Shown: piece after piece, positions 22,664 to 33,958 of the stretch
Numbering within the stretch: position 1 is the first letter of the stretch
Layout: each line of letters starts with the position of its first letter
Assembly (NCBI GenBank): GCA_947302715.1
Contig: CAMYVY010000009.1
Coordinates: forward strand, 11,648-75,647
DNA length: 64,000 bases
Direction of reading: 5' to 3'
From: an uncultured Clostridia bacterium
GTDB lineage: Bacteria > Bacillota > Clostridia > Peptostreptococcales > Anaerovoracaceae
Notes under the pieces: model-generated
Databases searched by the model: none
What the model was told of the DNA's origin: nothing
Seen by the model: the letters and a program-made list of their open reading frames with translations, nothing else
Position numbers and translations under genes: made by a program

Positions 22664-23659
22664 ATGACTAAGACACTTGTTATAATGGCTGCGGGAATCG
22701 GTTCGCGATTCGGGGGCGGAATCAAGCAGCTTGAGCCTGTTGGACCGAATGGCGAAATAATAATGGACTATTCGATTCACGATGCGATAGCCGCCGGCTT
22801 TAAGAGAATCGTTTTCATCATTCGCCGAGACATCGAAGCGGATTTTATGGAGGTGATTGGTGACAGAATTGCTGCGGTTTGTGAGCCGCTTGGCGTTGAG
22901 GTTGCATACGCATTCCAAGAGAAGGACTTGATGCCGGCCGGGGTGCCTACAGAAGTCGAAGGACGTTTGCTTGATGATGTGATTATTGAACGAACAAAGC
23001 CTTGGGGCACAGGACACGCAATACTTGCCTGCGATGGTTTGATTGACGGCCCCTTTGCTGTTATAAACGCTGACGATTATTATGGAAAGAACGGATTTAA
23101 AAAGGCTGCGGAATTTCTTGAATCCGGCGGGGCCGAATACGGTCTTGTTGGTTATATTTTAAAGAACACGCTTTCCGACAACGGAGGCGTAACTCGCGGA
23201 ATCTGCCGGATTGCGTCTGATGGCAGCGATAGATTGATTGGAATCGACGAGACCAAGGACATCATCAAGGTCGTTAAACCTGCGGCAGAAAAAGGCGGCG
23301 AATCCGGCGGTGAATCGGAAACAGAAATCACTGCCGAATCCAACGGTGAACCTATTGATGTTAATTCGCTCGTATCAATGAACTTCTGGTGCTACCCCGC
23401 ATCGTTCATGGATGTGCTGAGAGAAGGCTTCCCGGAATTCCTCGAGGAGATGAGAGACCCTTTAAAGGATGAATACCTCCTTCCGACAATCGTGGATGGA
23501 CTTCTAAGACAAGGGACTGATGTCACGGTAATTCCGACGGACGACTGTTGGTTCGGTGTAACATATAAAGAAGACAAGACTTCCGTCGTCGACAGTTTCA
23601 AGAAACTCTACGAAGAGGGAGTCTACAGCGAGGACCTATACAATGAATTACAAAGATGA
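22664..23659 (+). CDS. Stand-alone sugar-1-phosphate nucleotidyltransferase
   Basis: 'IMAAGIGSRFGG.IKQ', 'KPWGTGHAIL', 'INADDYYG'; no left-handed beta-helix domain. Confidence 0.85.
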   Translation: MTKTLVIMAAGIGSRFGGGIKQLEPVGPNGEIIMDYSIHDAIAAGFKRIVFIIRRDIEADFMEVIGDRIAAVCEPLGVEVAYAFQEKDLMPAGVPTEVEGRLLDDVIIERTKPWGTGHAILACDGLIDGPFAVINADDYYGKNGFKKAAEFLESGGAEYGLVGYILKNTLSDNGGVTRGICRIASDGSDRLIGIDETKDIIKVVKPAAEKGGESGGESETEITAESNGEPIDVNSLVSMNFWCYPASFMDVLREGFPEFLEEMRDPLKDEYLLPTIVDGLLRQGTDVTVIPTDDCWFGVTYKEDKTSVVDSFKKLYEEGVYSEDLYNELQR

Positions 23660-25535
23660 ATATAAACGCTGGTTGGATAGTCCGACGGTGAGCAAAGCCG
23701 ACAAAGAGGAACTCCGTGCGCTTTCCGAAGACGAGGTTAGAGAAAGGTTTTCTGCTGAGCTGGAATTCGGAACTGCCGGAATTAGACGAGTCATGGAGGT
23801 TGGACCCGGTAGCATGAACAGCTATACGGTTAAGCATGTGACTCGCGCGCTTGGAATGTATTTAACTGGTGACAAAGATAATGCAAACCCGCAAAAACAA
23901 TACTCCGTTGTGATTGCGTGCGACTCGAGAAACAACAGCCAGAGATTTGCGGAGGAAGCAGCATGCGTACTTGCGGCACAGGGCATCCATGTGTTTTTGT
24001 TTGAGGACTTGAGACCGACACCCGAGCTATCGTTTGCCGTTCGCTACGCCGGTGCCTCCGCCGGAATCAACATAACCGCAAGCCATAACACCAAGGAATA
24101 CAATGGCTACAAGGTTTATGGATCTGATGGAGCGCAGCTATCTCCGGAGCACGCGGATGAGGTCGCTCGTATAATTTCCGAGACCGATGTCCTTGATGAG
24201 CCGGAATCGATGGACCTTGATGAGGCGGTGAAAAACAGCGTGGTCGAACTAATTGATGGCTATGTGGACAATATGTACCTGGCGCAGGTGATGCAGCAGT
24301 CGCGAATCGTTTCAGAAGCCGCAAAAACAAAAATTGTTTACACTGCGTTCCATGGAACAGGATACAAGTTTGTGCCGGAGGTTCTTAAGCGTGACGGTTT
24401 CGAAAATGTTTATTGCGTTGAGCCTCAGTGCATTCCGGACGGCGATTTTCCAACGGTCAAGAGTCCCAACCCGGAGAATGAAGAGAGCTTTAAAATGGCT
24501 ATTGAACTTGCGGCCTCTGTTTGCGCTGATTTGATTATCGGAACTGACCCGGACGGCGATCGCTGTGGCGTCGCAATCCCTGTGTCCAACGTTCAATCCG
24601 CACAATCATTAGACCGAGAAGAGGTCGGAATGACAGTGCAGGATTCGCAAGCTGCGCAGGAAGCTCCGGAACCATCAAGGAAATATAGAGTTCTTACCGG
24701 CAATCAAGTCGGCGTGCTGATTCTTGATTATCTAATCAAAATGCGCAGTATCGAAAGGCGCAATCTCGATACGCACGATCTTGAAAAGTCCAGTTCGGAC
24801 GCGACCAAACGGCCGTATGCCGCGAAGAGCATCGTTTCTACAAACATGGCGAATCGCATTTGTGAAAAACATGGCGTCGAAATGGTGGAAACTTTGACAG
24901 GCTTCAAGTTCATTGGTGAAAAGATGGAAGAACTCTCTGTCGGCCAGGGAAGGGAGTTTGTCTTTGGATTCGAAGAAAGCAACGGCTACCTTACCGGCCT
25001 CTATGCAAGGGACAAGGATTCGATTGTGGCGGCTTTGCTTGTTGCTGAGACTGCGGCCTATCATGCAGCTAATGGTCGAACCATGGAACAGGCGCTCGCC
25101 GCGCTCTACGAAGAATACGGTTATTATTTGGAAAAGGTGGTATCCAAGGGCTTTGATGGTCTTGATGGTGCAGCCGAGATGCAAGCGTTTATGGATAACT
25201 ATCGCCAAAATCCGCCATCAAAAATCGCAGGCCTACCGGTAATCACAATCAGGGATTATCTATCCGGCGAGATAAAAGAGATAGTCGGATCGCCGATAGC
25301 TACAGAGGATAGCGACACCTCTATTTATACGGATGCAAGTGCAGATGCGGGTATTCGCGTTCGACCGACCGGACTTCCAAAGAGCAATGTGCTCTTCTAC
25401 GAACTTGCCGGAGGAAGCAGCTTCGTCGTTCGCCCATCCGGTACAGAACCAAAAATCAAATTCTATCTGTCAGCTGTAGGTGCGACTCGCAGCGAAGCTG
25501 AGGCGGTGCTCGCAGCCCTCGAGTCTGCAATATAA
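23643..25535 (+). CDS. pgm: Phosphoglucomutase / phospho-sugar mutase
   Basis: 'FGTAG.R', 'ITASHN', 'DPDGDR', 'FEESNG', 'RPSGTEPKIKFY'. Confidence 0.92.
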   Translation: MNYKDEYKRWLDSPTVSKADKEELRALSEDEVRERFSAELEFGTAGIRRVMEVGPGSMNSYTVKHVTRALGMYLTGDKDNANPQKQYSVVIACDSRNNSQRFAEEAACVLAAQGIHVFLFEDLRPTPELSFAVRYAGASAGINITASHNTKEYNGYKVYGSDGAQLSPEHADEVARIISETDVLDEPESMDLDEAVKNSVVELIDGYVDNMYLAQVMQQSRIVSEAAKTKIVYTAFHGTGYKFVPEVLKRDGFENVYCVEPQCIPDGDFPTVKSPNPENEESFKMAIELAASVCADLIIGTDPDGDRCGVAIPVSNVQSAQSLDREEVGMTVQDSQAAQEAPEPSRKYRVLTGNQVGVLILDYLIKMRSIERRNLDTHDLEKSSSDATKRPYAAKSIVSTNMANRICEKHGVEMVETLTGFKFIGEKMEELSVGQGREFVFGFEESNGYLTGLYARDKDSIVAALLVAETAAYHAANGRTMEQALAALYEEYGYYLEKVVSKGFDGLDGAAEMQAFMDNYRQNPPSKIAGLPVITIRDYLSGEIKEIVGSPIATEDSDTSIYTDASADAGIRVRPTGLPKSNVLFYELAGGSSFVVRPSGTEPKIKFYLSAVGATRSEAEAVLAALESAI

Positions 25536-25576: not shown

Positions 25577-25607
25577 ACGGTCGTGCATTTATGAGCGGCC
25601 GTTTTTT
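25577..25607 (+). terminator. Intrinsic terminator after pgm
   Basis: acggtcg / cggccgt stem followed by T6. Confidence 0.6.
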
Positions 25608-25717: not shown

Positions 25718-25747
25718 TTGCACGGGCACATGATTTTGTGCTATAAT
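25718..25747 (+). promoter_or_regulatory. Promoter of the ribozyme-led amino-sugar operon
   Basis: TTGCAC-18 bp-TATAAT with extended TG (25739-25740). Confidence 0.65.
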
Positions 25748-25882
25748 AAATCGATTATGGCTATATGTTGTTTATTTTTGTCATTAAAAGATGTTGACCG
25801 TGCGTAAATGATAAAGTAGCAGCATATAGGCATCAATTATAAAATGACCACTTGCGTATGGAGGTGAACAAGGAGCGGAGAG

Positions 25883-26100
25883 GTTATTAGCGCCTGGCCC
25901 GCAGCAGTAAGCATATTGAACTTATGTGACCGCCTAATCATGAGCGGTGTAATCAGTGAATTCAATTTGGTTTATGGCTGGACAGGGTGACGAGGAATGG
26001 CAGTTATCGAAATATTCGGCGGATGCTGCCACGGCCGGTTTGCGTAAAGTTGCAATGTTAATGCGGTTTTCAATGCCTTTTAAGTGACGAAGCAAGACAC
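25883..26100 (+). ncRNA. glmS ribozyme (GlcN6P-dependent self-cleaving riboswitch)
   Basis: Cleavage-site AGCGCC (25889-25894); P1 GCCC/GGGT; GACGAGG (25989-25995); P2 TGGCAG/CTGCCA; TTATCGAA-atat-TCGGCGGA. Order and pairing match the glmS core as I know it; the 3' boundary is approximate. Confidence 0.92.
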
Positions 26101-26244
26101 GCTTTGCGCAGCCTAATGGGTCGTCAGAGAGAATTAAAAAGCAAAATTAAAATTGTAACAGAGGTTCTCTTACATTTAATAATAAGGCAATTAGTTTAAC
26201 AAAGTTGTTTGAGCGACTTTTGACGAATAAAGGAGATTAGATAT

Positions 26245-26940
26245 ATGTACAAAATAGCAGATCTCTATGATCTGGAACATAGCTTGGCGGGGGAATACAT
26301 TGGACAATTCGAGTATCCCTGGGAGGCATTAAAAGGCATCAAGGACTTTATTTTGGAGCTCGGCCCGACCTTGGAAGAGCGCTTCCCCGGGGAATACGAG
26401 GAGAGAGAACCCCAGGTATGGGTTCACAAAACTGCGACAGTATTTCCTTCTGCTTATCTTGGTGCGCCTTGCATCATCGGACCGAACACTGAAGTAAGAC
26501 ATTGCGCATTCATCAGGGGATCCGCTCTTGTTGGCGCTGACTGCGTAGTCGGTAACAGCGTGGAGCTAAAGAACGTGATTCTCTTTGACCATGTTCAGAC
26601 GCCGCACTATAACTATGTTGGTGATTCCATCCTGGGATATTACAGCCACATGGGAGCAGGTTCGATCACATCCAACGTCAAAGCCGATAAAGAGCTGGTC
26701 ATTGTGAACAACGTGAGAGGCTGCGGAACCCCGGACGGTGAACCTGAAATGATAGAAACGGGCATCAAGAAATTCGGTGCGATGCTCGGTGACCACGTCG
26801 AGATTGGATGTAATGCGGTACTTAACCCGGGCACTGTCGTTGGTCGAAACACTAATGTCTATCCGACCAGTTGCGTGCGTGGCGTAGTCCCTGAAAGCAG
26901 CATTTTCAAAAATAGCGGCGAAATCATTAAAAAGAAGTAA
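26245..26940 (+). CDS. Stand-alone left-handed beta-helix acetyltransferase, GlmU C-terminal-like
   Basis: Hexapeptide repeats; 'YPWEAL', 'ELKN', 'PHYNYVGDSILG', 'GAGSITSN', 'GAMLGDHVEIGCNAVLNPG'; no nucleotidyltransferase domain. Confidence 0.8.
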   Translation: MYKIADLYDLEHSLAGEYIGQFEYPWEALKGIKDFILELGPTLEERFPGEYEEREPQVWVHKTATVFPSAYLGAPCIIGPNTEVRHCAFIRGSALVGADCVVGNSVELKNVILFDHVQTPHYNYVGDSILGYYSHMGAGSITSNVKADKELVIVNNVRGCGTPDGEPEMIETGIKKFGAMLGDHVEIGCNAVLNPGTVVGRNTNVYPTSCVRGVVPESSIFKNSGEIIKKK

Positions 26941-26945
26941 TGCCC

Positions 26946-27063
26946 AAAACCAGCGACACTGTCGAGTTAAAACAAAAATCAAAACCAGCGACACTGTCGA
27001 ATTAAAACATAAATCAAAACCAGCGACATTGTCAAGCTAAAACATAAATCAAAACCAGCGACA
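26946..27063. repeat. 35-bp tandem repeat, 3 full copies plus a partial, each with an internal palindrome
   Basis: Units start at 26946, 26981, 27016 and 27051 (aaaaccagcgacactgtcga...); cgaca-c-tgtcg palindrome. Confidence 0.9.
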
Positions 27064-27092
27064 ATACATAAGAAATAGAAAGGAATAGCCAT

Positions 27093-27893
27093 ATGCGTGT
27101 AGTAATACAGGACAATTATGATAAGATGTGCCAGTGGGCAGCTAATTATATAGCTGATAAAATATGCAAGCACAACGAAGAAGAAAGCAGTCGCCCATTT
27201 ATTTTGGGACTCCCGACAGGCTCCAGCCCGATTGGAGTCTACAAAGAACTCATCAAAAAGAACAAAGCCGGCGAACTCAGCTTTGCAAATGTTGTTACAT
27301 TTAATATGGACGAGTATCTTGGCTTGCCACATGAACACGACCAAAGTTATTGGTACTTCATGCACGACAACTTCTTTAATCATCTCGTTGACATGAAACC
27401 GGAAAACATCAACATCCTAAACGGAATGACGGATGACCCGGAGGCGGAATGTGCCGCCTACGAGGAGAAGATTGAGTCGTATGGCGGAATCGATCTCTTT
27501 ATGGGGGGAATCGGTGTGGACGGACACTTGGCATTCAATGAGCCATTCACGTCATTAACAAGCCGCACCGGACTGCGCGACCTGACTACCGACACAAGAA
27601 TCGTAAACTCCAGGTTCTTTGATAACGACCCTAACAAGGTGCCGGCCCAGGCTCTCTCGGTCGGAATCGGAACGGTAACCGATTCAAAGGAAGTGCTTGT
27701 TTTGATTTCCGGACACAACAAGGCCCGCGCTCTTGCTGCAACGGTAGAGGGAAACGTGAGCCACAAATGGACGTGCTCGGCACTTCAGATGCACAATGGT
27801 GCAATCATTGCCTGTGACGAGGAAGCCTGCGGTGAACTAACTGTTGACACCTATAAATACTTCCTCGACATCGAAAAGAAAGAGAGATTGTAA
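27093..27893 (+). CDS. nagB: Glucosamine-6-phosphate deaminase/isomerase
   Basis: 'LGLPTGSSP', 'TFNMDEY', 'GGIGVDGHLAFNEP', 'NSRFFDND'; 266 aa. Confidence 0.95.
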   Translation: MRVVIQDNYDKMCQWAANYIADKICKHNEEESSRPFILGLPTGSSPIGVYKELIKKNKAGELSFANVVTFNMDEYLGLPHEHDQSYWYFMHDNFFNHLVDMKPENINILNGMTDDPEAECAAYEEKIESYGGIDLFMGGIGVDGHLAFNEPFTSLTSRTGLRDLTTDTRIVNSRFFDNDPNKVPAQALSVGIGTVTDSKEVLVLISGHNKARALAATVEGNVSHKWTCSALQMHNGAIIACDEEACGELTVDTYKYFLDIEKKERL

Positions 27894-27997
27894 TAAAAGA
27901 TTGTAATAAATAATTGTAATCAGTAATAACTTGAAGGTGGGCATTCGTCAATTGAATGCTTTCACGATTAAACTGTACTAAACAAAAAGGAGATACC

Positions 27998-29353
27998 ATG
28001 GGGAAATATTTTGGTACTGATGGTTTTCGCGGCGAGGCCAATAAAGACCTTAATTATGAACATGCGATAAAGATTGGGCGTTTCCTTGGCTGGTACTATG
28101 GCGCAAAGCAAGGACCGGAGAAAAAAGCCAAGGTAGTTATCGGCAAGGACACGCGCCGCTCGAGCTATATGTTCGAGGATGCGTTGTGCACAGGCCTTAT
28201 TGCGAGCGGCGCTGACGCCTATATCATGCATGTTACAACGACTCCGTCGGTTGCGTACATCACGCGTGTTGACGACTTTGATTGCGGAATAATGATTTCC
28301 GCGTCGCACAATCCGTTCTACGATAACGGCATCAAGCTCTTCAACGAAAAAGGTGAGAAGATGCCGGAGGATACGATTCTTGAAATCGAGGATTACATCG
28401 ATGGAAAGTTGGAGATTCCGCTTGCCGTCCGTGATAAAATCGGGCAGACCGTTGACTACGAATCCGGCCGCAACCGCTACATGGGTTATCTGATTTCGCT
28501 GGCGAAGTACGGCTTCAAGGATGTGAAGGTAGGTCTGGATGTTGCAAACGGTGCGGCCTGGTCTATTGCTAAGGGAGTTTTCAATGCGCTCGGCGCAAAG
28601 ACCTACGTTATAAACGACAGCCCGGATGGTTTCAACATCAACACCGACTGCGGCTCCACTCATATCGAGCATCTGCAGAAGTTCGTGGTCGACAATGGTC
28701 TGGATGTTGGTTTTGCTTATGATGGCGATGCCGACCGTTGCCTCTGCGTCGATGAAAAGGGAAACGTCATTACTGGCGACCACATTCTCTATATCTACGG
28801 CCTCTACATGAAAGAGCGCGACAAACTTCTCGACAACAAAATCGTAACGACCATCATGAGTAACTTTGGTCTCTATAAGGCGCTCGACAAGGTCGGCATC
28901 GAATATGAGAAAACCAAAGTCGGCGACAAATATGTCTATGAATGCATGGCCGAAAACGGTTATCGTATCGGCGGTGAACAGAGCGGCCACATCATTTTTA
29001 CAAAGTATGCGACGACGGGTGACGGCATCCTGACCAGTCTCAAAATCATGGAGGCGATGCTGGCAAAGAAGAAGCCGCTTAGTGAACTCGCTGCACCAGT
29101 AGAGTTCTATCCGCAGGTTCTTAAGAACGTCCGCGTGAAGAGTAAGCCCGACGCACAGAATGACCCGGATGTGCAGGCAGCGGTCGCAGCGGTCTCCGAG
29201 AAACTGGGAGACGAAGGACGAATTCTCGTTCGCGAGTCCGGGACAGAGCCTGTGATTCGCGTAATGGTTGAGGCGGGCTCCGACGAGACCTGTGAAAAAT
29301 ACGTTGATGAGGTCATCGAGGTTATTGCGAGCAAGGGCCACATCGCAGAGTAG
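27998..29353 (+). CDS. glmM: Phosphoglucosamine mutase
   Basis: 'KYFGTDG.RG', 'GKDTRRS', 'ISASHNPF.DNGIK', 'DGDADR', 'VGDKYV', 'GGEQSGH', 'RESGTEP'; AAGGAG RBS before ATG 27998. Confidence 0.95.
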   Translation: MGKYFGTDGFRGEANKDLNYEHAIKIGRFLGWYYGAKQGPEKKAKVVIGKDTRRSSYMFEDALCTGLIASGADAYIMHVTTTPSVAYITRVDDFDCGIMISASHNPFYDNGIKLFNEKGEKMPEDTILEIEDYIDGKLEIPLAVRDKIGQTVDYESGRNRYMGYLISLAKYGFKDVKVGLDVANGAAWSIAKGVFNALGAKTYVINDSPDGFNINTDCGSTHIEHLQKFVVDNGLDVGFAYDGDADRCLCVDEKGNVITGDHILYIYGLYMKERDKLLDNKIVTTIMSNFGLYKALDKVGIEYEKTKVGDKYVYECMAENGYRIGGEQSGHIIFTKYATTGDGILTSLKIMEAMLAKKKPLSELAAPVEFYPQVLKNVRVKSKPDAQNDPDVQAAVAAVSEKLGDEGRILVRESGTEPVIRVMVEAGSDETCEKYVDEVIEVIASKGHIAE

Positions 29354-29415
29354 CATTTTTGATTATATGTAGATGCATTATACGAATATGCTATGTAGCA
29401 AAATGAATTATTAGC

Positions 29416-29470
29416 AAAATGCTACGCGAAAGAAAGCAAACGACTATCTATCGCGTAGCGTTTTTATTTT
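29416..29470 (+). terminator. Terminator-like hairpin after glmM
   Basis: gctacgcga / tcgcgtagc stem with a long loop, followed by a T-rich tract. Confidence 0.55.
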
Positions 29471-29663
29471 TTGAAAAGTGCTGTATAGAAAATCGCAAAT
29501 AATACAAAAACTACGCGAAAGAGGGTAAAAGATTCCCCGACAAACGACAAAGGATTTTCCGAAGAAACTATTTATGTTGAGGGAAACGTCCCAACTATGA
29601 TATCATAGTCTAATAATTGTAATAATTAATGAATACGTGCATATAGAGAATAAGTTGTCATAA

Positions 29664-30182
29664 ATGAATAATATCAACCCAAGTAGAAAATATCTAATAG
29701 CCACTTTGATAGTCATGGCTTTCATTTTCTTTCAGTCGTCTTTACAAGGACCCGTGTCAGGAAATGAGAGTGGCGTTTTTGTTGAGATTATAGCCAAAAT
29801 ACTCAAAGTGACGCCGGACGAAGGTTTCCATTTTACAATAAGAAAACTTGCTCATTTTACGGAGTATGCGATATTGGGCATAACGCTCGGATTGCTCGTT
29901 TGGAGCCCATCGAACAAGGCCGCCACCGAGCATTCAAACTCCGCAGATCATCTTGATGAAACCATAGCATCAGGTGAAGTAATTCTTCCTCAATTTAGAA
30001 CAGGATTTATTGCATGGTTAATAGGTAGTGTTTATGCTGTGACAGATGAACTTCATCAATATTTAGTCCCTGGCAGGAGCTGCCAAGTGAATGATATGCT
30101 TATCGATTCCGCCGGGGTATTCTTTGGGGTGCTTTTAACCGGCATTCTATTATTATTTATTAGGCGTACAAGACGAGTGTAA
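29664..30182 (+). CDS. VanZ family membrane protein
   Basis: 'RKLAHFTEYAILG', 'YAVTDELHQ..VPGR....D..ID'. Confidence 0.85.
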   Translation: MNNINPSRKYLIATLIVMAFIFFQSSLQGPVSGNESGVFVEIIAKILKVTPDEGFHFTIRKLAHFTEYAILGITLGLLVWSPSNKAATEHSNSADHLDETIASGEVILPQFRTGFIAWLIGSVYAVTDELHQYLVPGRSCQVNDMLIDSAGVFFGVLLTGILLLFIRRTRRV

Positions 30183-30260: not shown

Positions 30261-32171
30261 ATGATGAAAGGCAATCTCTTTAGAAGGCAATTAAGAAGAC
30301 AACTATCTTTAATACTTGTTGTTTTTACTTTATTCTTGATGTTCCCTGGTTACTGGGGCGGAATAACTATTGCAGCAGCGCAGGAATCTGACATAGATAT
30401 CAACAGTTACGATAGCCTGGGTCTCAGAGGCACTTTCTGCTACGACAAAGCCTTCGAAGTACTTGCAATAGTAAATGCCGAAAGAGCAAAAGTCGGTCTC
30501 AGACCGTTAAGAATGGACGCAGAACTCCTTGATGCAGCAATGGTGAGAGCCGCCGAGACTGCGCTCTTGTTCTCACACACAAGGCCGAATGGTGAAGCGT
30601 GCTTCTCCATCAGCGGAAGCATGTTCGGAGAAAATATCGCTTATGGCCATAATAATGCAGCGGGTACGATGGAACAGTGGATGAATTCACCGGGTCACAA
30701 ATACAATATTCTAAATGGATGGTCGAATACTCCGAGTGAATATAAAAACCCAATGAGGTATACCACGATAGGTATTGGATGCTTCGAGTATGCGGGCAGG
30801 TGCTATTGGAGTCAGGCCTTCGGAATTGCCAACCTTTCTTCTGACTGTGCAAGACCGAGAAATGACATGATGGATGTGATGATTGCAATGCCAAGAAATA
30901 ACTTTATTCTTGATGGTGGCAACAGAATTACGTACACATTCGATCCTCTGGTTTGGATACAGGATGAGCACAATTCGTTTTTCTATGCCATAGGTGATGA
31001 GCCAATCTTGGTGAATGTGGGAGAGGGAACAACTCTTGGCTTGGGGATGAACGGAGTGGTATTCATACCTGAGTCAGTGCGATGGAAGATTGGAGACGCA
31101 AGCGTTGCGAAGATGGACGGCATCAATGTTATCGGAGTTAAGCCTGGAATTACAAAACTTACAGCGATGTCTTCCGCCGGAACGGAAAGAGCAACTGCCA
31201 ACGTAAAGGTTGTTGACTTTAAGCGTGTTTCCGGAAAAGACAGATATCTGACCTCAATTGCTGCAGCGGATTATTTGCTGGAGCAAAGAAAGGAAAGCGG
31301 TAAATTATCAAAATTTGACACGGTTGTAATTGCCTTTGGTGGGAATTTTGCTGATGCGCTTTCCGGAACATATTTGGCGGGAATCACGGATGCTCCAATT
31401 CTTTTAGTAAACAAGACCTACGAGGAACAGGTTGTCAGCTACATAAAATCCAACCTCAGGTCGGGAGGAAAGGCGTATATTCTTGGTGGCAACTTGGCTG
31501 TTTCAAAGAGCGTTGAGGACAAGCTGGGTTCATCCGGATTTGCTGTAAAGAGGCTTGCTGGTCAAGATCGTTACGGTACAAATTTGGCAATCCTGGAGGA
31601 GTGCGCAGCTATCAGCGGCCTCAGCTCCGGCTCCGGCTCCGGCTCCGCCATTTCCAATAACCATTACATGATTTGCTCGGGCACGAGCTTCGCGGATTCT
31701 CTCTCCGCCGCTTCCGTCGGATATCCAATAATGCTTGTTGGAAAGTCATTGACGTCCGCGCAGAGGGAACATCTTCTCAAACAGCAGAGCTTGACCGTTA
31801 GCAAATTCGCAGCGGATATAATCGGGGGCACATTTGCTGTAAATTCTTCAGTTGAGGGAGAACTCGGAAATTATACTGCAGCTATTCGAAGAATTGGAGG
31901 AAAGGATCGATTTGAAACATCCGAGTTGGTAGCCAAGAACTATTTCTCTAACCCTGATTCTGCAGTCTTAGTCTATTCGCAGAATTTCCCCGATGGGCTA
32001 TCGGGTGGTCCGGTGGGAGTTGCACTGAACGCACCGATTCTTTTAGTGAACAACAAAAATTACTCCAGAGCAGAGTCGTTTTGCAAGTTGAATAGAATCA
32101 GAAAAGTTGTCGCTGTAGGTGGACAAGTGATTATACCTGATGAAGTAGGTATTGCTTGCGTTGCTTGGTAG
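30261..32171 (+). CDS. Secreted CAP (SCP) domain + Ig-like + three CWB2 repeats
   Basis: Signal-like N-terminus; 'IVNAERAKVGL.PL', 'HTRPNG', 'GENIAYG', 'WMNSPGH..NIL'; repeats 'R..G.DRY.T', 'FADALS', 'PILL'. Confidence 0.85.
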   Translation: MMKGNLFRRQLRRQLSLILVVFTLFLMFPGYWGGITIAAAQESDIDINSYDSLGLRGTFCYDKAFEVLAIVNAERAKVGLRPLRMDAELLDAAMVRAAETALLFSHTRPNGEACFSISGSMFGENIAYGHNNAAGTMEQWMNSPGHKYNILNGWSNTPSEYKNPMRYTTIGIGCFEYAGRCYWSQAFGIANLSSDCARPRNDMMDVMIAMPRNNFILDGGNRITYTFDPLVWIQDEHNSFFYAIGDEPILVNVGEGTTLGLGMNGVVFIPESVRWKIGDASVAKMDGINVIGVKPGITKLTAMSSAGTERATANVKVVDFKRVSGKDRYLTSIAAADYLLEQRKESGKLSKFDTVVIAFGGNFADALSGTYLAGITDAPILLVNKTYEEQVVSYIKSNLRSGGKAYILGGNLAVSKSVEDKLGSSGFAVKRLAGQDRYGTNLAILEECAAISGLSSGSGSGSAISNNHYMICSGTSFADSLSAASVGYPIMLVGKSLTSAQREHLLKQQSLTVSKFAADIIGGTFAVNSSVEGELGNYTAAIRRIGGKDRFETSELVAKNYFSNPDSAVLVYSQNFPDGLSGGPVGVALNAPILLVNNKNYSRAESFCKLNRIRKVVAVGGQVIIPDEVGIACVAW

Positions 32172-32248
32172 GGCGAACGATGGATGCTGTGCGCTGGCGA
32201 CTTTGATGGGTTAGGTAATGCTTGGTGAGTTTAATGAGGTGATTATTT

Positions 32249-33958
32249 ATGAGATTTAGACGTGGGAATAAATTAAAACGAAGATTTCGGCACATTGCGG
32301 CTGCATTGGTTATGCTTTTCCTCGTGTTTGGCGTCTTGCCATCTGCGACTCCAATTTCGGGAACATGGCCATCTTTGGCTGCGATATCAGATATGTGGTG
32401 CCCCGGAGCGCTTGTTGCGCAGGCTGACAGTATTCCGTTTGACCCAAATGATTACCCCGGTGAATTCGATTATGAATATGCTTACGAGGTATTGGAGATA
32501 GTTAACGAGGTGCGCAAAGCGGGCGGACGGCCGGAAATCAAGATGGAAAAGAGTCTGCTTGATTCGGCCATGCTGCGTGCAGCCGAAATACCCAATTATT
32601 TCTCGCATTATAGGCCAAACGGTACATCGTTTAGGACGACGAATACAATAGTTGATCAAGAGAATATTGCATTCGGATTCTTTAGCCCTGAGGATGTAAT
32701 GGATTGCTGGATGAATTCATATGCACACTGGGACAACATTATGTATGATGGCTATAACACCATTGGAATCGGTTGCTATCGTTACGGAGGAAGTGTATAC
32801 TGGGTCCAGCATTTCAGCCCAACCAAAATCAGCGAGAGCTATGCGGACCCTCGCGGCCTCGGTTTTTCAAACAACATAGAGGATTACGACATAACGCGCT
32901 ACGCAGGGAAGAACAGATATGAGACAGCTCTCCAAATTGCAAATAGTATTGGCGTGCTTTTCGACTATCAAGAGGGCCGATTCGGAGATATGACGATAAA
33001 AGAATTCATTTCGCGATATGGAGAAATGTTTACTGAGGCCGGGGACTCTTTTGACACGGTGATAGTTGCTTATGGCGGAAACTATGCGGATGCGCTTTCG
33101 GGTTCGTATTTGGCTTATCTAACAAAGGCACCGATTGTCTTGGTGAATAAATCAAATGAGAATCAGATAATTGATTATGTAAATAAAAAACTCGTGGACG
33201 ATGGACAGGTATATATTTTGGGCGGCCCTTCGGTTGTGTCTGATCATTTGGAAGAGACCCTTTCCGGCAATTTCTTTGTAACACGGCTTTGGGGTAATGA
33301 TAGATACGGTACTAATTTGTCCATACTTAAGGAATGCAATAGACTTTTGGGAAAGGGCGAACTGTCGGCGTACAATGCTGATGGTGCGGGCGAATCGACT
33401 GCAAGTGAAGTTGATGGTGCGAGCGAATCGACTGGTTCCGCTGAATTTGTTTACCCGGACGGTCCTTGCTTGGTTTGTTCCGGCAAGGGCTTTGCTGATG
33501 CTCTCTCGGCTTCAGCAGCTTGTATGCCAATACTCCTGGTGGGCGATAAGCTGACAGGTGACCAGGAGGCCTATCTCGAAAAAACCGAGTATGACTACAG
33601 CATCATAGGAGGTACTCTTGCTGTTAGTAATGATGTCGAATATGCGCTATCCGATAGTGGAGTAGTGAGAACGAGGCTTGCTGGTAAGGATAGATTCGAG
33701 ACGTCGGTCCTGGTAGCAAAGAGCTTTTTCCCGAGCAAACCGGAAACTGTGATGCTGGCTTATTCGCAGAACTTCCCGGATGGTCTGTCCGGTGCACCAC
33801 TTGCGCAGATGTATAATGCTCCGCTTATACTCGTAAACAACAAGAATTATCAGCATGCTGTTGATTATTGCAAATCCGTCGTAGCGAAAGCCCTTGGAAT
33901 CTTTGGAGGAGAATTGGTCATTTCGAACGATACGGCTATTAAATGTCTTGCATGGTAG
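32249..33958 (+). CDS. Second secreted CAP domain + three CWB2 repeats (paralog)
   Basis: 'HYRPNG', 'ENIAFG', 'WMNSYAH..NI'; three CWB2 repeats; ends CLAW versus CVAW in its neighbour. Confidence 0.85.
   Translation: MRFRRGNKLKRRFRHIAAALVMLFLVFGVLPSATPISGTWPSLAAISDMWCPGALVAQADSIPFDPNDYPGEFDYEYAYEVLEIVNEVRKAGGRPEIKMEKSLLDSAMLRAAEIPNYFSHYRPNGTSFRTTNTIVDQENIAFGFFSPEDVMDCWMNSYAHWDNIMYDGYNTIGIGCYRYGGSVYWVQHFSPTKISESYADPRGLGFSNNIEDYDITRYAGKNRYETALQIANSIGVLFDYQEGRFGDMTIKEFISRYGEMFTEAGDSFDTVIVAYGGNYADALSGSYLAYLTKAPIVLVNKSNENQIIDYVNKKLVDDGQVYILGGPSVVSDHLEETLSGNFFVTRLWGNDRYGTNLSILKECNRLLGKGELSAYNADGAGESTASEVDGASESTGSAEFVYPDGPCLVCSGKGFADALSASAACMPILLVGDKLTGDQEAYLEKTEYDYSIIGGTLAVSNDVEYALSDSGVVRTRLAGKDRFETSVLVAKSFFPSKPETVMLAYSQNFPDGLSGAPLAQMYNAPLILVNNKNYQHAVDYCKSVVAKALGIFGGELVISNDTAIKCLAW

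Follow-up and report, generated by a model that had tools for sequence, protein, structure and literature searches.

An uncultured, rumen-type Clostridia bacterium carries a glmS-class ribozyme at the head of genes for an acetyltransferase, NagB and GlmM, and glmS itself has been deleted from its genome. We favour the reading that this ribozyme-led cassette is probably the sole source of GlmM, of a candidate acetyltransferase and of de novo glucosamine-6-phosphate (GlcN6P) in the cell, under feedback by GlcN6P. The cassette lies in the window analysed here, a stretch of 64,000 nucleotides. What is new is the demonstrated deletion of glmS in a carrier of the ribozyme-nagB cassette.

The Rfam covariance-model scan of the window gave a single match, to the glmS ribozyme family RF00234 (positions 25878-26084, forward strand; 39.4 bits, E 9.7e-06), above the gathering score of 37 bits. 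In a scan of the 2.05-Mb genome, the site scores 32.8 bits and is the only glmS ribozyme found. The cleavage site read from the sequence lies between A25889 and G25890, the latter opening the GCGCC motif (25890-94). GACGAGG is found at 25989-95, the P2 strands TGGCA and TGCCA at 25998-26002 and 26027-31, and TTATCGA...TCGGCGGATG at 26004-26025. The complete core reported in the initial annotation is thus confirmed, with all invariant elements in place (AGCGCC cut after its A, GACGAGG and UUAUCGA..UCGGCGGAUG; 25889-94, 25989-95 and 26004-25). On the other hand, Rfam aligns the 3' part of the RNA (26040-26084) wrongly. An alignment to the genus-mate ribozymes and motif-anchored parsing place the true 3' strand of P3, P4 and P4.1 at 26120-26171, and the RF00234 score is low because two loop insertions of ~84 nt, in P1 and P3, misalign this 3' domain. 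Homologous ribozymes (51-69 bits) occupy the corresponding position in genus-mates G002, G006 and G007. The window RNA is a structurally intact glmS-class ribozyme, predicted from its sequence to self-cleave in a GlcN6P-dependent manner. Its context is not the usual 5' UTR of glmS, the downstream genes being those of the acetyltransferase, nagB and glmM.

Table 1. Features of the ribozyme locus, in window coordinates.
Feature	Positions	Strand	Basis and details
Likely intrinsic terminator behind the upstream gene pair (NTP-transferase / PGM-like)	25577..25607	+	7-bp stem, 12-nt loop, T6
Candidate promoter	25718..25747	+	Read from sequence; TTGCAC, 18-nt spacer, extended -10 TGcTATAAT (TATAAT 25742-25747)
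glmS-class ribozyme, full extent	25878..26176 (end approximate)	+	RF00234 match, genus-mate alignment, helix-by-helix parsing
P1	25897..25988	+	GCCC 25897-25900 / GGGT 25985-25988; 84-nt loop insert 25901-25984, which folds as an extended hairpin
Catalytic core	25989..26031	+	Rfam match, parsing; GACGAGG, P2 TGGCA/TGCCA, P2a TCGA/TCGG, GGCG 26018-21
P3	26032..26123	+	Alignment, parsing; CGGC 26032-35 / GTCG 26120-23 around 84-nt loop insert
P4 and P4.1	26127..26171	+	Motif-anchored parsing; P4 GAGAGAATT 26127-35 / GGTTCTCTT 26163-71 (9 bp); P4.1 GCAA 26141-44 / TTGT 26153-56
LbH acetyltransferase (AT), putative GlcN-1-P N-acetyltransferase, archaeal-type GlmU C-terminal half	26245..26940	+	RBS AAGGAG 26230-35
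NagB, glucosamine-6-phosphate deaminase/isomerase, E. coli-type	27093..27893	+	TIGR00502, 376.5 bits (cutoff 236.9)
GlmM, phosphoglucosamine mutase, cassette type	27956..29353	+	TIGR01455, 536.4 bits (cutoff 447.6)
VanZ-family protein, possibly last gene of the unit	29664..30182	+	Domain search

The ribozyme is located within the ~490-nt leader of the AT-nagB-glmM operon. The likely terminator upstream (Table 1) argues that this operon is a separate transcription unit; the automatic terminator scan skipped the site, as it allowed only loops of 3-8 nt. The candidate promoter is likewise missing from the consensus promoter scan, its -35 hexamer matching the consensus at 3/6 positions. From the gene arrangement, AT, nagB and glmM are probably co-transcribed from the ribozyme leader, and the 152-nt gap between AT and nagB could hold a promoter of its own. 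A gap of 310 nt with promoter-like matches separates glmM from the VanZ gene, whereas the end of glmM and the VanZ homologue overlap in G002.

Domain and TIGRFAM searches bear out the proposed gene order of acetyltransferase, nagB and glmM followed by vanZ. AT matches the archaeal-type GlmU profile TIGR03992 with 131 bits, below its cutoff of 292, and only over profile positions 215-393, the LbH half. It therefore resembles a stand-alone GlmU C-terminal domain, with a putative substrate. AT is the top GlmU-like match of the whole genome and is present in single copy; no bifunctional GlmU was found in the genome. NagB, also in single copy, shares ~60% identity with solved NagBs, as estimated by eye, and keeps the FNMDEY and DGHxAFNEP (here DGHLAFNEP) motifs intact. 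However, the alignment shows SRTGLRD where the solved enzymes read SRTRIKT. Arg158, Lys160 and Thr161 (E. coli numbering) are residues that we take to form the GlcNAc6P allosteric site of NagB, and the sequence suggests that the cassette enzyme has lost the phosphate-binding Arg and Thr of this site. Finally, GlmM contains all four Pfam PGM/PMM domains (I-IV). It is the sole GlmM of the genome, the other PGM-family paralogs being at most 29% identical to it, and shares 43-48% identity with the native GlmM of the genus.

Because glmS is deleted, NagB is probably the only de novo route to GlcN6P in the cell. The enzyme would run in the direction Fru6P + NH4+ -> GlcN6P. As GlcN6P rises, the ribozyme would cleave at the site described above, and the downstream fragment with its 5'-OH end would be degraded by RNase J, which is encoded in the genome. 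The output of the operon would then fall, creating a negative feedback on an ammonium-dependent amino-sugar pathway. An OFF switch triggered by GlcN6P suits a producer of GlcN6P and not a remover, which supports an anabolic NagB. The NagB reaction is indeed reversible (Keq about 0.2 M); in E. coli, overexpression of nagB rescues a glmS mutant (PMC11593775, PMC11822699). Since the ribozyme would also repress single-copy GlmM and AT, which consume its ligand, repression should be partial at most.

A NagA (294 bits, above cutoff) is encoded next to the extracellular solute-binding protein of a sugar ABC system. This adjacency points to a possible salvage route to GlcN6P, which counts against NagB as the sole source. 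In the extreme case, the cell would make no GlcN6P de novo; imported GlcNAc or cell-wall fragments would be converted by NagA, NagB would drain the surplus into glycolysis, and the ribozyme would mainly tune GlmM and AT. Debris of microbial cell walls, plentiful in the rumen, would feed such a route. In addition, the equilibrium of the NagB reaction lies on the side of deamination, and the E. coli enzyme shows a Km of about 31 mM for NH4+ (PMC11593775). We nevertheless consider this auxotrophy unlikely. Shutting a deaminase off amid abundant substrate would be counter-productive, NagB clusters with two biosynthetic enzymes and not with nagA or a transporter, and the GlcNAc6P allosteric site of catabolic NagB appears altered here. 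Moreover, every glmS-less genome of the genus with usable data has NagB while most glmS-bearing ones are without it, a pattern that fits substitution better than catabolism.

Feedback through the cassette supposes a working ribozyme. In the window RNA, all pairs are formed in P1 (4/4), P2 (5/5) and P2a (4/4). Among the 52 cassette-context ribozymes, pairing is complete for P1 in 51/52, for P2 in 52/52 (all 5/5 pairs, through 13 sequence variants) and for P4.1 in 49/52, and the compensatory changes across this set include the window's own. Compared with G002 (GGAAGAA/TTCTTCC, ACAG/CTGT), both P4 and P4.1 show double, compensatory changes; a mismatched-partner control for P4 gave no discrimination, its purine and pyrimidine strands pairing promiscuously. 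GGCG (26018-21) is complementary to CGCC (25891-94) and can form the P2.1 pseudoknot, whose columns are invariant and so carry no covariation signal. For P3.1, we noted by eye only a weak 4-bp candidate (AATG 26116-19 / CATT 26173-76). Model R1, built on an automatic RNAalifold structure that did not reproduce the true P2, was used for detection alone.

The two inserts raise the question of whether the switch is decaying, with a crippled ribozyme left as a relic and an effectively constitutive operon. The window RNA has the lowest Rfam score of its class (39.4 bits, or 32.8 genome-wide). Its P1 insert is unique among the 52, the P1 loop measuring 3-17 nt in the other 51, and this 84-nt outlier might slow folding. 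Folded alone, the insert is not significantly stable against shuffles (z = -1.05). Furthermore, the type-B cassettes of genus-mates lack a ribozyme and run from a simple TTGACA-17-TATAAT promoter. A relic is nonetheless quite improbable. All conserved core nucleotides and helices are kept, the double changes in P4 and P4.1 indicate continued selection, and each insert closes into a hairpin, so that the two strands of its stem come to lie next to each other. In mutational scans, P1 proved structurally tolerant (PMC7125110), and many cassette-type ribozymes have P3-loop inserts in this size range (60-90 nt; e.g. L082, L085, L112, L121). We reject mobile or repeated elements as the source of the P1 and P3 inserts, since neither has a second copy in the genome or a counterpart in the 80 related loci.

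The initial annotation found no glmS in the window, and this extends to the whole assembly (43 contigs, 90.8% complete), where a profile search gave no GlmS match above cutoff and no SIS-domain match. Synteny shows that the gene was deleted. In G009, the native order is hpf-cdaA-cdaR-glmM-glmS-DUF436-nadE. In the window's genome, contig C7 carries, unbroken, hpf-cdaA-cdaR and then nadE 46 bp later. The native genes for GlmM and for the GlmU-C-type acetyltransferase are also missing. The cassette is present and glmS missing in five further genus-mates (G001, G002, G003, G007 and G010; 75-96% complete, G010 being 96% complete). In G003 and G008, glmS alone was excised from the same native site, and G005 and G009 keep the ancestral-type cdaA-cdaR-glmM-glmS operon. 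It is hardly credible that glmS hides in the ~9% of the genome left unassembled, as synteny rejects this cause: the native site, whole on a single contig, has neither glmM nor glmS, the five genus-mates lack glmS too, and two other native genes are gone with it.

These data also do not support the proposed history, in which the switch was kept while the gene making GlcN6P was replaced. Replacement of glmS in situ behind a retained ribozyme is rejected, since native glmS in this genus lies ~60 nt after glmM, without a ribozyme and with no room for one. Besides, RF00234 matched none of the family's glmS-bearing members, and the deletion site is on C7, a different contig from that of the ribozyme locus.

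The ribozyme evidently arrived together with the AT, nagB and glmM genes, as judged from the cassette-type ribozyme shared with distant rumen and gut Firmicutes. The ribozyme and nagB/AT/glmM cassette is found in 49/80 related loci examined. Between genomes, the cassette proteins share 79-86% (GlmM), 78-91% (NagB) and 74-82% (AT) identity, against 38-46% for CdaA of the same genomes. On these identities, the cassette is spread horizontally among rumen and gut Firmicutes and is foreign in origin in the window's genome. All ten other cassette carriers tested retain glmS or most of it (9 above the family cutoff, 1 partial match). A second ribozyme on the glmS of such carriers was not found, with one RF00234 match per genome in 5/5 scanned. 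In G043 (= L059), cross-checked coordinates show that the single ribozyme is the cassette copy; in the four others, glmS and the RF00234 match are on different contigs. The suggestion that the arrangement marks a non-canonical GlcN6P supply thus survives in part: a NagB-based route is the most economical reading here, but the ribozyme-cassette coexists with glmS, or most of it, outside the clade, so that the arrangement alone is no marker of glmS loss. Conversely, an Rfam E-value scan and a custom model with filters off found no ribozyme at type-B cassettes of genus-mates and at NagB-GlmM-AT loci. Genus-mates G010, G001 and G003 carry the cassette without the ribozyme, and the RNA is therefore dispensable. 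It had been allowed that the arrangement might already be common, at the cost of its novelty. It is common, but we found no publication that describes the wiring or places a glmS ribozyme in front of nagB; a brief mention in McCown 2011 or McCown, Winkler and Breaker 2012 is possible.

The window RNA shares with canonical RF00234 ribozymes (Bacillus subtilis, Thermoanaerobacter tengcongensis, Clostridioides difficile), normally located in the 5' UTR of glmS, the AGCGCC cleavage motif, GACGAGG, P1/P2/P2a, the P2.1 complement and the P3-P4-P4.1 domain. By analogy, it would also share the GlcN6P cofactor and RNase J decay of the 5'-OH product. Unlike them, it has 84-nt inserts in the P1 and P3 loops, controls AT, nagB and glmM in a genome without glmS, and would repress consumers of its ligand along with the presumed producer. 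The cassette closely resembles those of rumen and gut Firmicutes (L056-L135): its three proteins recur there at 74-91% identity, and its ribozyme belongs to their subtype (P1 GCCC/GGGT or GACC/GGTT, P2 mostly TGGCA/TGCCA, P4.1 motif conserved). Its AT-first gene order is shared with L066, L076, L079, L081 and L113. In contrast to the ten other carriers, however, the window's genome has lost glmS, native glmM and the native acetyltransferase, leaving the cassette as sole pathway, and the P1 insert occurs only there. The Bacillus-type cdaA-cdaR-glmM-glmS operon is ancestral to the genus, in a version with no ribozyme before glmS; the window's genome keeps its hpf-cdaA-cdaR part.

Anabolic use of the reversible reaction Fru6P + NH4+ <-> GlcN6P is known from NagB suppression of E. 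coli glmS mutants and from biosynthetic GNPDA of eukaryotes (PMC11822699, PMC11593775). Those cases are laboratory overexpression or side routes, whereas the present route would be natural, sole and riboswitch-regulated. In reviews, the glmS ribozyme figures as a regulator dedicated to glmS, and GlmS as the essential and drug-targetable step by which bacteria enter the synthesis of cell-wall amino sugars. In the present genome, an RNA of this class controls a different presumed producer of its ligand, and the glmS deletion is a natural knockout that makes reverse NagB a testable physiological route, beyond a laboratory curiosity. A NagB route would be well placed in habitats rich in ammonia, the rumen among them, and would spare glutamine. 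We give an even chance to the broader proposal that a rumen Firmicutes clade has fully replaced the universal, glutamine-dependent GlmS entry by a horizontally acquired cassette, with native glmM-glmS and GlmU-C lost, ammonium-using NagB as sole GlcN6P synthase, the ribozyme re-targeted to feedback on this alternative pathway, and G003 (glmS lost, native glmM kept) as a preserved intermediate. The naturally enlarged P1 and P3 loops offer a test case for the tolerance of the ribozyme to peripheral insertions. Overall, the genus forms a graded displacement series, from the native operon to loss of glmS, then of glmM-glmS, and to a cassette with or without the ribozyme.

The glmS ribozyme (RF00234) is the sole Rfam match in the window (25878-26084, plus strand; E 9.7e-06), scoring 39.4 bits (gathering score, 37), and a genome-wide RNA scan identified it as the single glmS ribozyme of the source genome, G000. 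This agrees with the initial annotation, which had proposed such a ribozyme from sequence motifs, all of which were found at their positions. Canonical glmS ribozymes stand in front of glmS in published accounts (PMC5473149, PMC2258182, PMC2211319, PMC3766115), whereas this one stands in front of acetyltransferase, nagB and glmM genes (hereafter the cassette). Each of the three is single-copy in G000, and no bifunctional GlmU was found in the genome. A GlmS model run on the G000 assembly (2.05 Mb, 43 contigs, 90.8% complete; the window lies on contig C9) retrieved nothing beyond a PurF-like amidotransferase domain, and SIS domains were lacking. Hence, the lack of glmS first reported for the window holds across the whole assembly, by model search as well as by synteny.

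Features of the ribozyme, its operon and compared loci (window positions unless a locus is named)
Feature	Position	Strand	Remarks
Nucleotidyltransferase-like gene (331 aa) overlapping PGM-family gene (630 aa)	22664-25535		directly upstream of ribozyme
Candidate intrinsic terminator	25577-25607		ends the upstream gene pair; read from sequence
Candidate extended -10 promoter, TGcTATAAT	25739-47		5' of ~490-nt leader; read from sequence
Scissile bond	A25889/G25890	+	followed by GCGCC; from sequence
GACGAGG	25989-95	+	from sequence
P2, TGGCA/TGCCA		+	from sequence
UUAUCGA...UCGGCGGAUG		+	core motif of ribozyme, present in window
P3 3' strand, GTCG	26120-23	+	past 3' end of Rfam match
P4	26127-35 with 26163-71	+	past 3' end of Rfam match
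P4.1	GCAA 26141-44 with TTGT 26153-56	+	past 3' end of Rfam match
Left-handed beta-helix acetyltransferase	26245-26940		matches archaeal-type GlmU in C-terminal half only
NagB	27093-27893		TIGR00502, 376 bits, above cutoff
GlmM	27956-29353		TIGR01455, 536 bits, above cutoff
VanZ	from 29664		after GlmM
Consensus promoter TTGACA-17-TATAAT of type-B (NagB-acetyltransferase-GlmM) cassettes	L040 4129-4157 (G010); also L041, L042		AT-rich ~85-nt leader, no ribozyme
Full glmS downstream of cassette	L059, L074, L095, L114, L132
Full glmS upstream of cassette	L066, L080, L086, L107

Genus members bearing glmS combine a native GlmM, which shares 43-48% identity with that of the window, with a bacterial-type GlmU-C acetyltransferase that stands alone, and the cassette is absent from them. 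In G000 and its genus-mates G001, G002, G003, G007 and G010 (96% complete), the cassette is present while glmS and the bacterial-type acetyltransferase are both absent. With the two most contaminated bins set aside (G006 and G011, which show both), the native and cassette configurations are close to mutually exclusive within the genus. The cassettes of G010, G001 and G003 have NagB first, behind a plain consensus promoter, with no ribozyme detected even with filters off. Since these cassettes are ribozyme-less, the ribozyme appears to be an optional regulator of the module. It is also absent from loci with the order NagB-GlmM-acetyltransferase (L057, L058, L060, L061, L063, L065, L071). Several loci of this ribozyme-less kind are labelled Anaerovoracaceae or Mogibacterium.

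Because glmS is deleted, NagB would be the only candidate for de novo GlcN6P synthesis in G000. Its reaction is reversible, with a Keq of ~0.2 M, and E. coli glmS mutants are rescued by nagB overexpression (PMC11593775, PMC11822699). From the published Keq, we calculated by mass action that millimolar Fru6P and 5-30 mM ammonium would give tens to ~150 micromolar GlcN6P. The cassette NagB is of the E. coli type with intact catalytic motifs; at residues ~150-161, it reads SRTGLRD where E. coli-type NagBs align SRTRIKT. This segment aligns with the GlcNAc6P allosteric site, and its divergence suggests a NagB that may be non-allosteric or otherwise regulated.

We infer that the ribozyme cleaves and that the operon is co-transcribed. 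High GlcN6P would then turn operon expression off, the 5'-OH cleavage product being presumably degraded by RNase J, as in Bacillus; RNase J is encoded in G000. The switch would also lower GlmM and the acetyltransferase, and since both consume the ribozyme ligand and are single-copy, repression would have to stay incomplete. The reversibility of NagB would dampen any overshoot. Alternatively, G000 could rely on salvage only, with imported GlcNAc yielding GlcN6P via NagA and NagB being catabolic, and NagA indeed adjoins a sugar-binding ABC component. However, a GlcN6P-triggered OFF switch would be sensible for a GlcN6P producer but perverse for a deaminase, and this regulatory logic, together with the complementarity of NagB and glmS within the genus, argues against the salvage-only reading.

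Ribozymes occupy the equivalent position in G002, G007 and G006 (51-69 bits), and alignment with them shows that the window RNA corresponds to the genus-mate ribozyme with an additional 84 nt inserted in each of the P1 and P3 loops. Given these insertions, the P3 3' strand, P4 and P4.1 are placed beyond the Rfam match, the final 45 nt of which are a forced fit; read in this way, the Rfam score understates the completeness of the ribozyme. Both inserts are single-occurrence in the genome, and each is predicted to fold as a closed hairpin joining the stem strands. Among cassette ribozymes, the P3 loop often holds an insertion of 60-90 nt, whereas a P1 loop of 84 nt occurs only in the window, the others having 3-17 nt. 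In a published mutational scan (PMC7125110), P1 proved purely structural and tolerant. Helices were parsed in 52 ribozymes from the same gene context. All four P1 pairs form in 51 of them, chiefly as GACC/GGTT or its compensatory alternative GCCC/GGGT, and all five P2 pairs in 52/52, with 13 sequence variants. P4.1 is fully paired in 49 (4/4 pairs; GCAG/CTGT, GCGG/CCGT and the GCAA/TTGT of the window), and P4 has at least 6 bp in 47/52, with 42 variants. Relative to G002, P4 and P4.1 of the window carry double compensatory changes, a signature of continued selection. Both these changes and the retained core argue against a relic disabled by its inserts.

In the complete genus-mates G009 and G005, glmS lies ~60 nt after glmM in a Bacillus-type operon, hpf-cdaA-cdaR-glmM-glmS-DUF436-nadE. 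The unbroken contig C7 of G000 carries hpf, cdaA (with DAC and CdaA_N domains) and cdaR (with YbbR), and nadE comes next, 46 bp after cdaR. Because these neighbours share one uninterrupted contig, glmM and glmS must have been excised from their native site, and this synteny argues against a glmS hidden in unassembled DNA. The DUF436 gene is found on another contig (C3:59889-60455), so that the deletion probably came with a rearrangement. At the native site of G003 (L137, contig C78) and G008 (L140, contig C6), only glmS is removed and the native glmM is kept. In G003, this excision is paired with a NagB-acetyltransferase cassette without GlmM; G008 has no cassette and carries a stand-alone B. 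subtilis-type NagB adjoining a fatty-acid synthesis cluster (L044 4584-5312).

Searching species-representative genomes with the acetyltransferase gave more than 580 loci (74-82% identity); nearly all belong to Bacillota of the rumen or gut, which bear many different family labels. In the best 80 of these, the gene is grouped with NagB and GlmM, though the gene order varies. In 49 of the 80, a ribozyme immediately 5' of the cassette was detected by a covariance model trained only on canonical glmS-linked ribozymes from sister families. Cassette proteins are 74-91% identical to those of the window, as compared to 38-46% for the housekeeping CdaA between the same genomes and ~45% for native GlmM within the genus, which indicates that cassette and ribozyme spread horizontally together.

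Ten other carriers were tested for glmS, and none lacks it entirely: nine exceed the family cutoff, and the tenth, G048, has most of the gene as a partial match (403 bits, cutoff 418). A single ribozyme is present in each of the five carriers scanned for RNA. That of G043 has the coordinates of the cassette ribozyme of locus L059; in the other four, glmS is on another contig than the ribozyme match. glmS adjoins the cassette in 9/80 loci, and since it starts only ~1.1 kb past glmM in L059, it may in some genomes be the distal member of a ribozyme-led unit. No RF00234 match was found in glmS-bearing members of the window's family. This, and the spread of a cassette-type ribozyme with its module, contradicts the initial proposal of an exchange of glmS behind a retained switch. 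More probably, the genome first gained a ribozyme-controlled module and later lost the native genes, elsewhere in the chromosome.

We found no publication linking a glmS ribozyme to nagB in the full-text literature; the McCown 2011 survey may hold a brief earlier mention. What appears new is the loss, by synteny, of glmS, native glmM and native acetyltransferase, which would leave the cassette as sole pathway in G000, along with a series of intermediates inside one genus, sister cassettes without ribozyme and a ribozyme set apart by its P1 insert.

Around the ribozyme, the terminator and promoter read as putative elements. Just 5' of the cleavage site, a purine-rich stretch (GGAGGTG...GAGAGG, 25860-25888) is conserved in G000, G002 and G007; it may, for example, pair with a downstream pyrimidine tract or mimic an RBS. 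G002 and G007 likewise have a PGM-like gene in front of the ribozyme (59-62% identity), a 37% homologue adjoins the cassette in locus L123, and paralogues of the upstream pair are on C3 and C1. This pair may provide a uridylyltransferase or other sugar-1-phosphate step of the cassette pathway. On the other side, vanZ overlaps the glmM end in G002 but is separated from it in the window by 310 nt (29354-29663) with several promoter-like matches, and may therefore now be a separate unit. Further on, 30261-33958 encodes members of a CAP-domain/CWB2 cell-wall-binding family found on many contigs (more than 25 tblastn matches, C1-C27), indicating an S-layer-type envelope that relies heavily on amino-sugar polymers.
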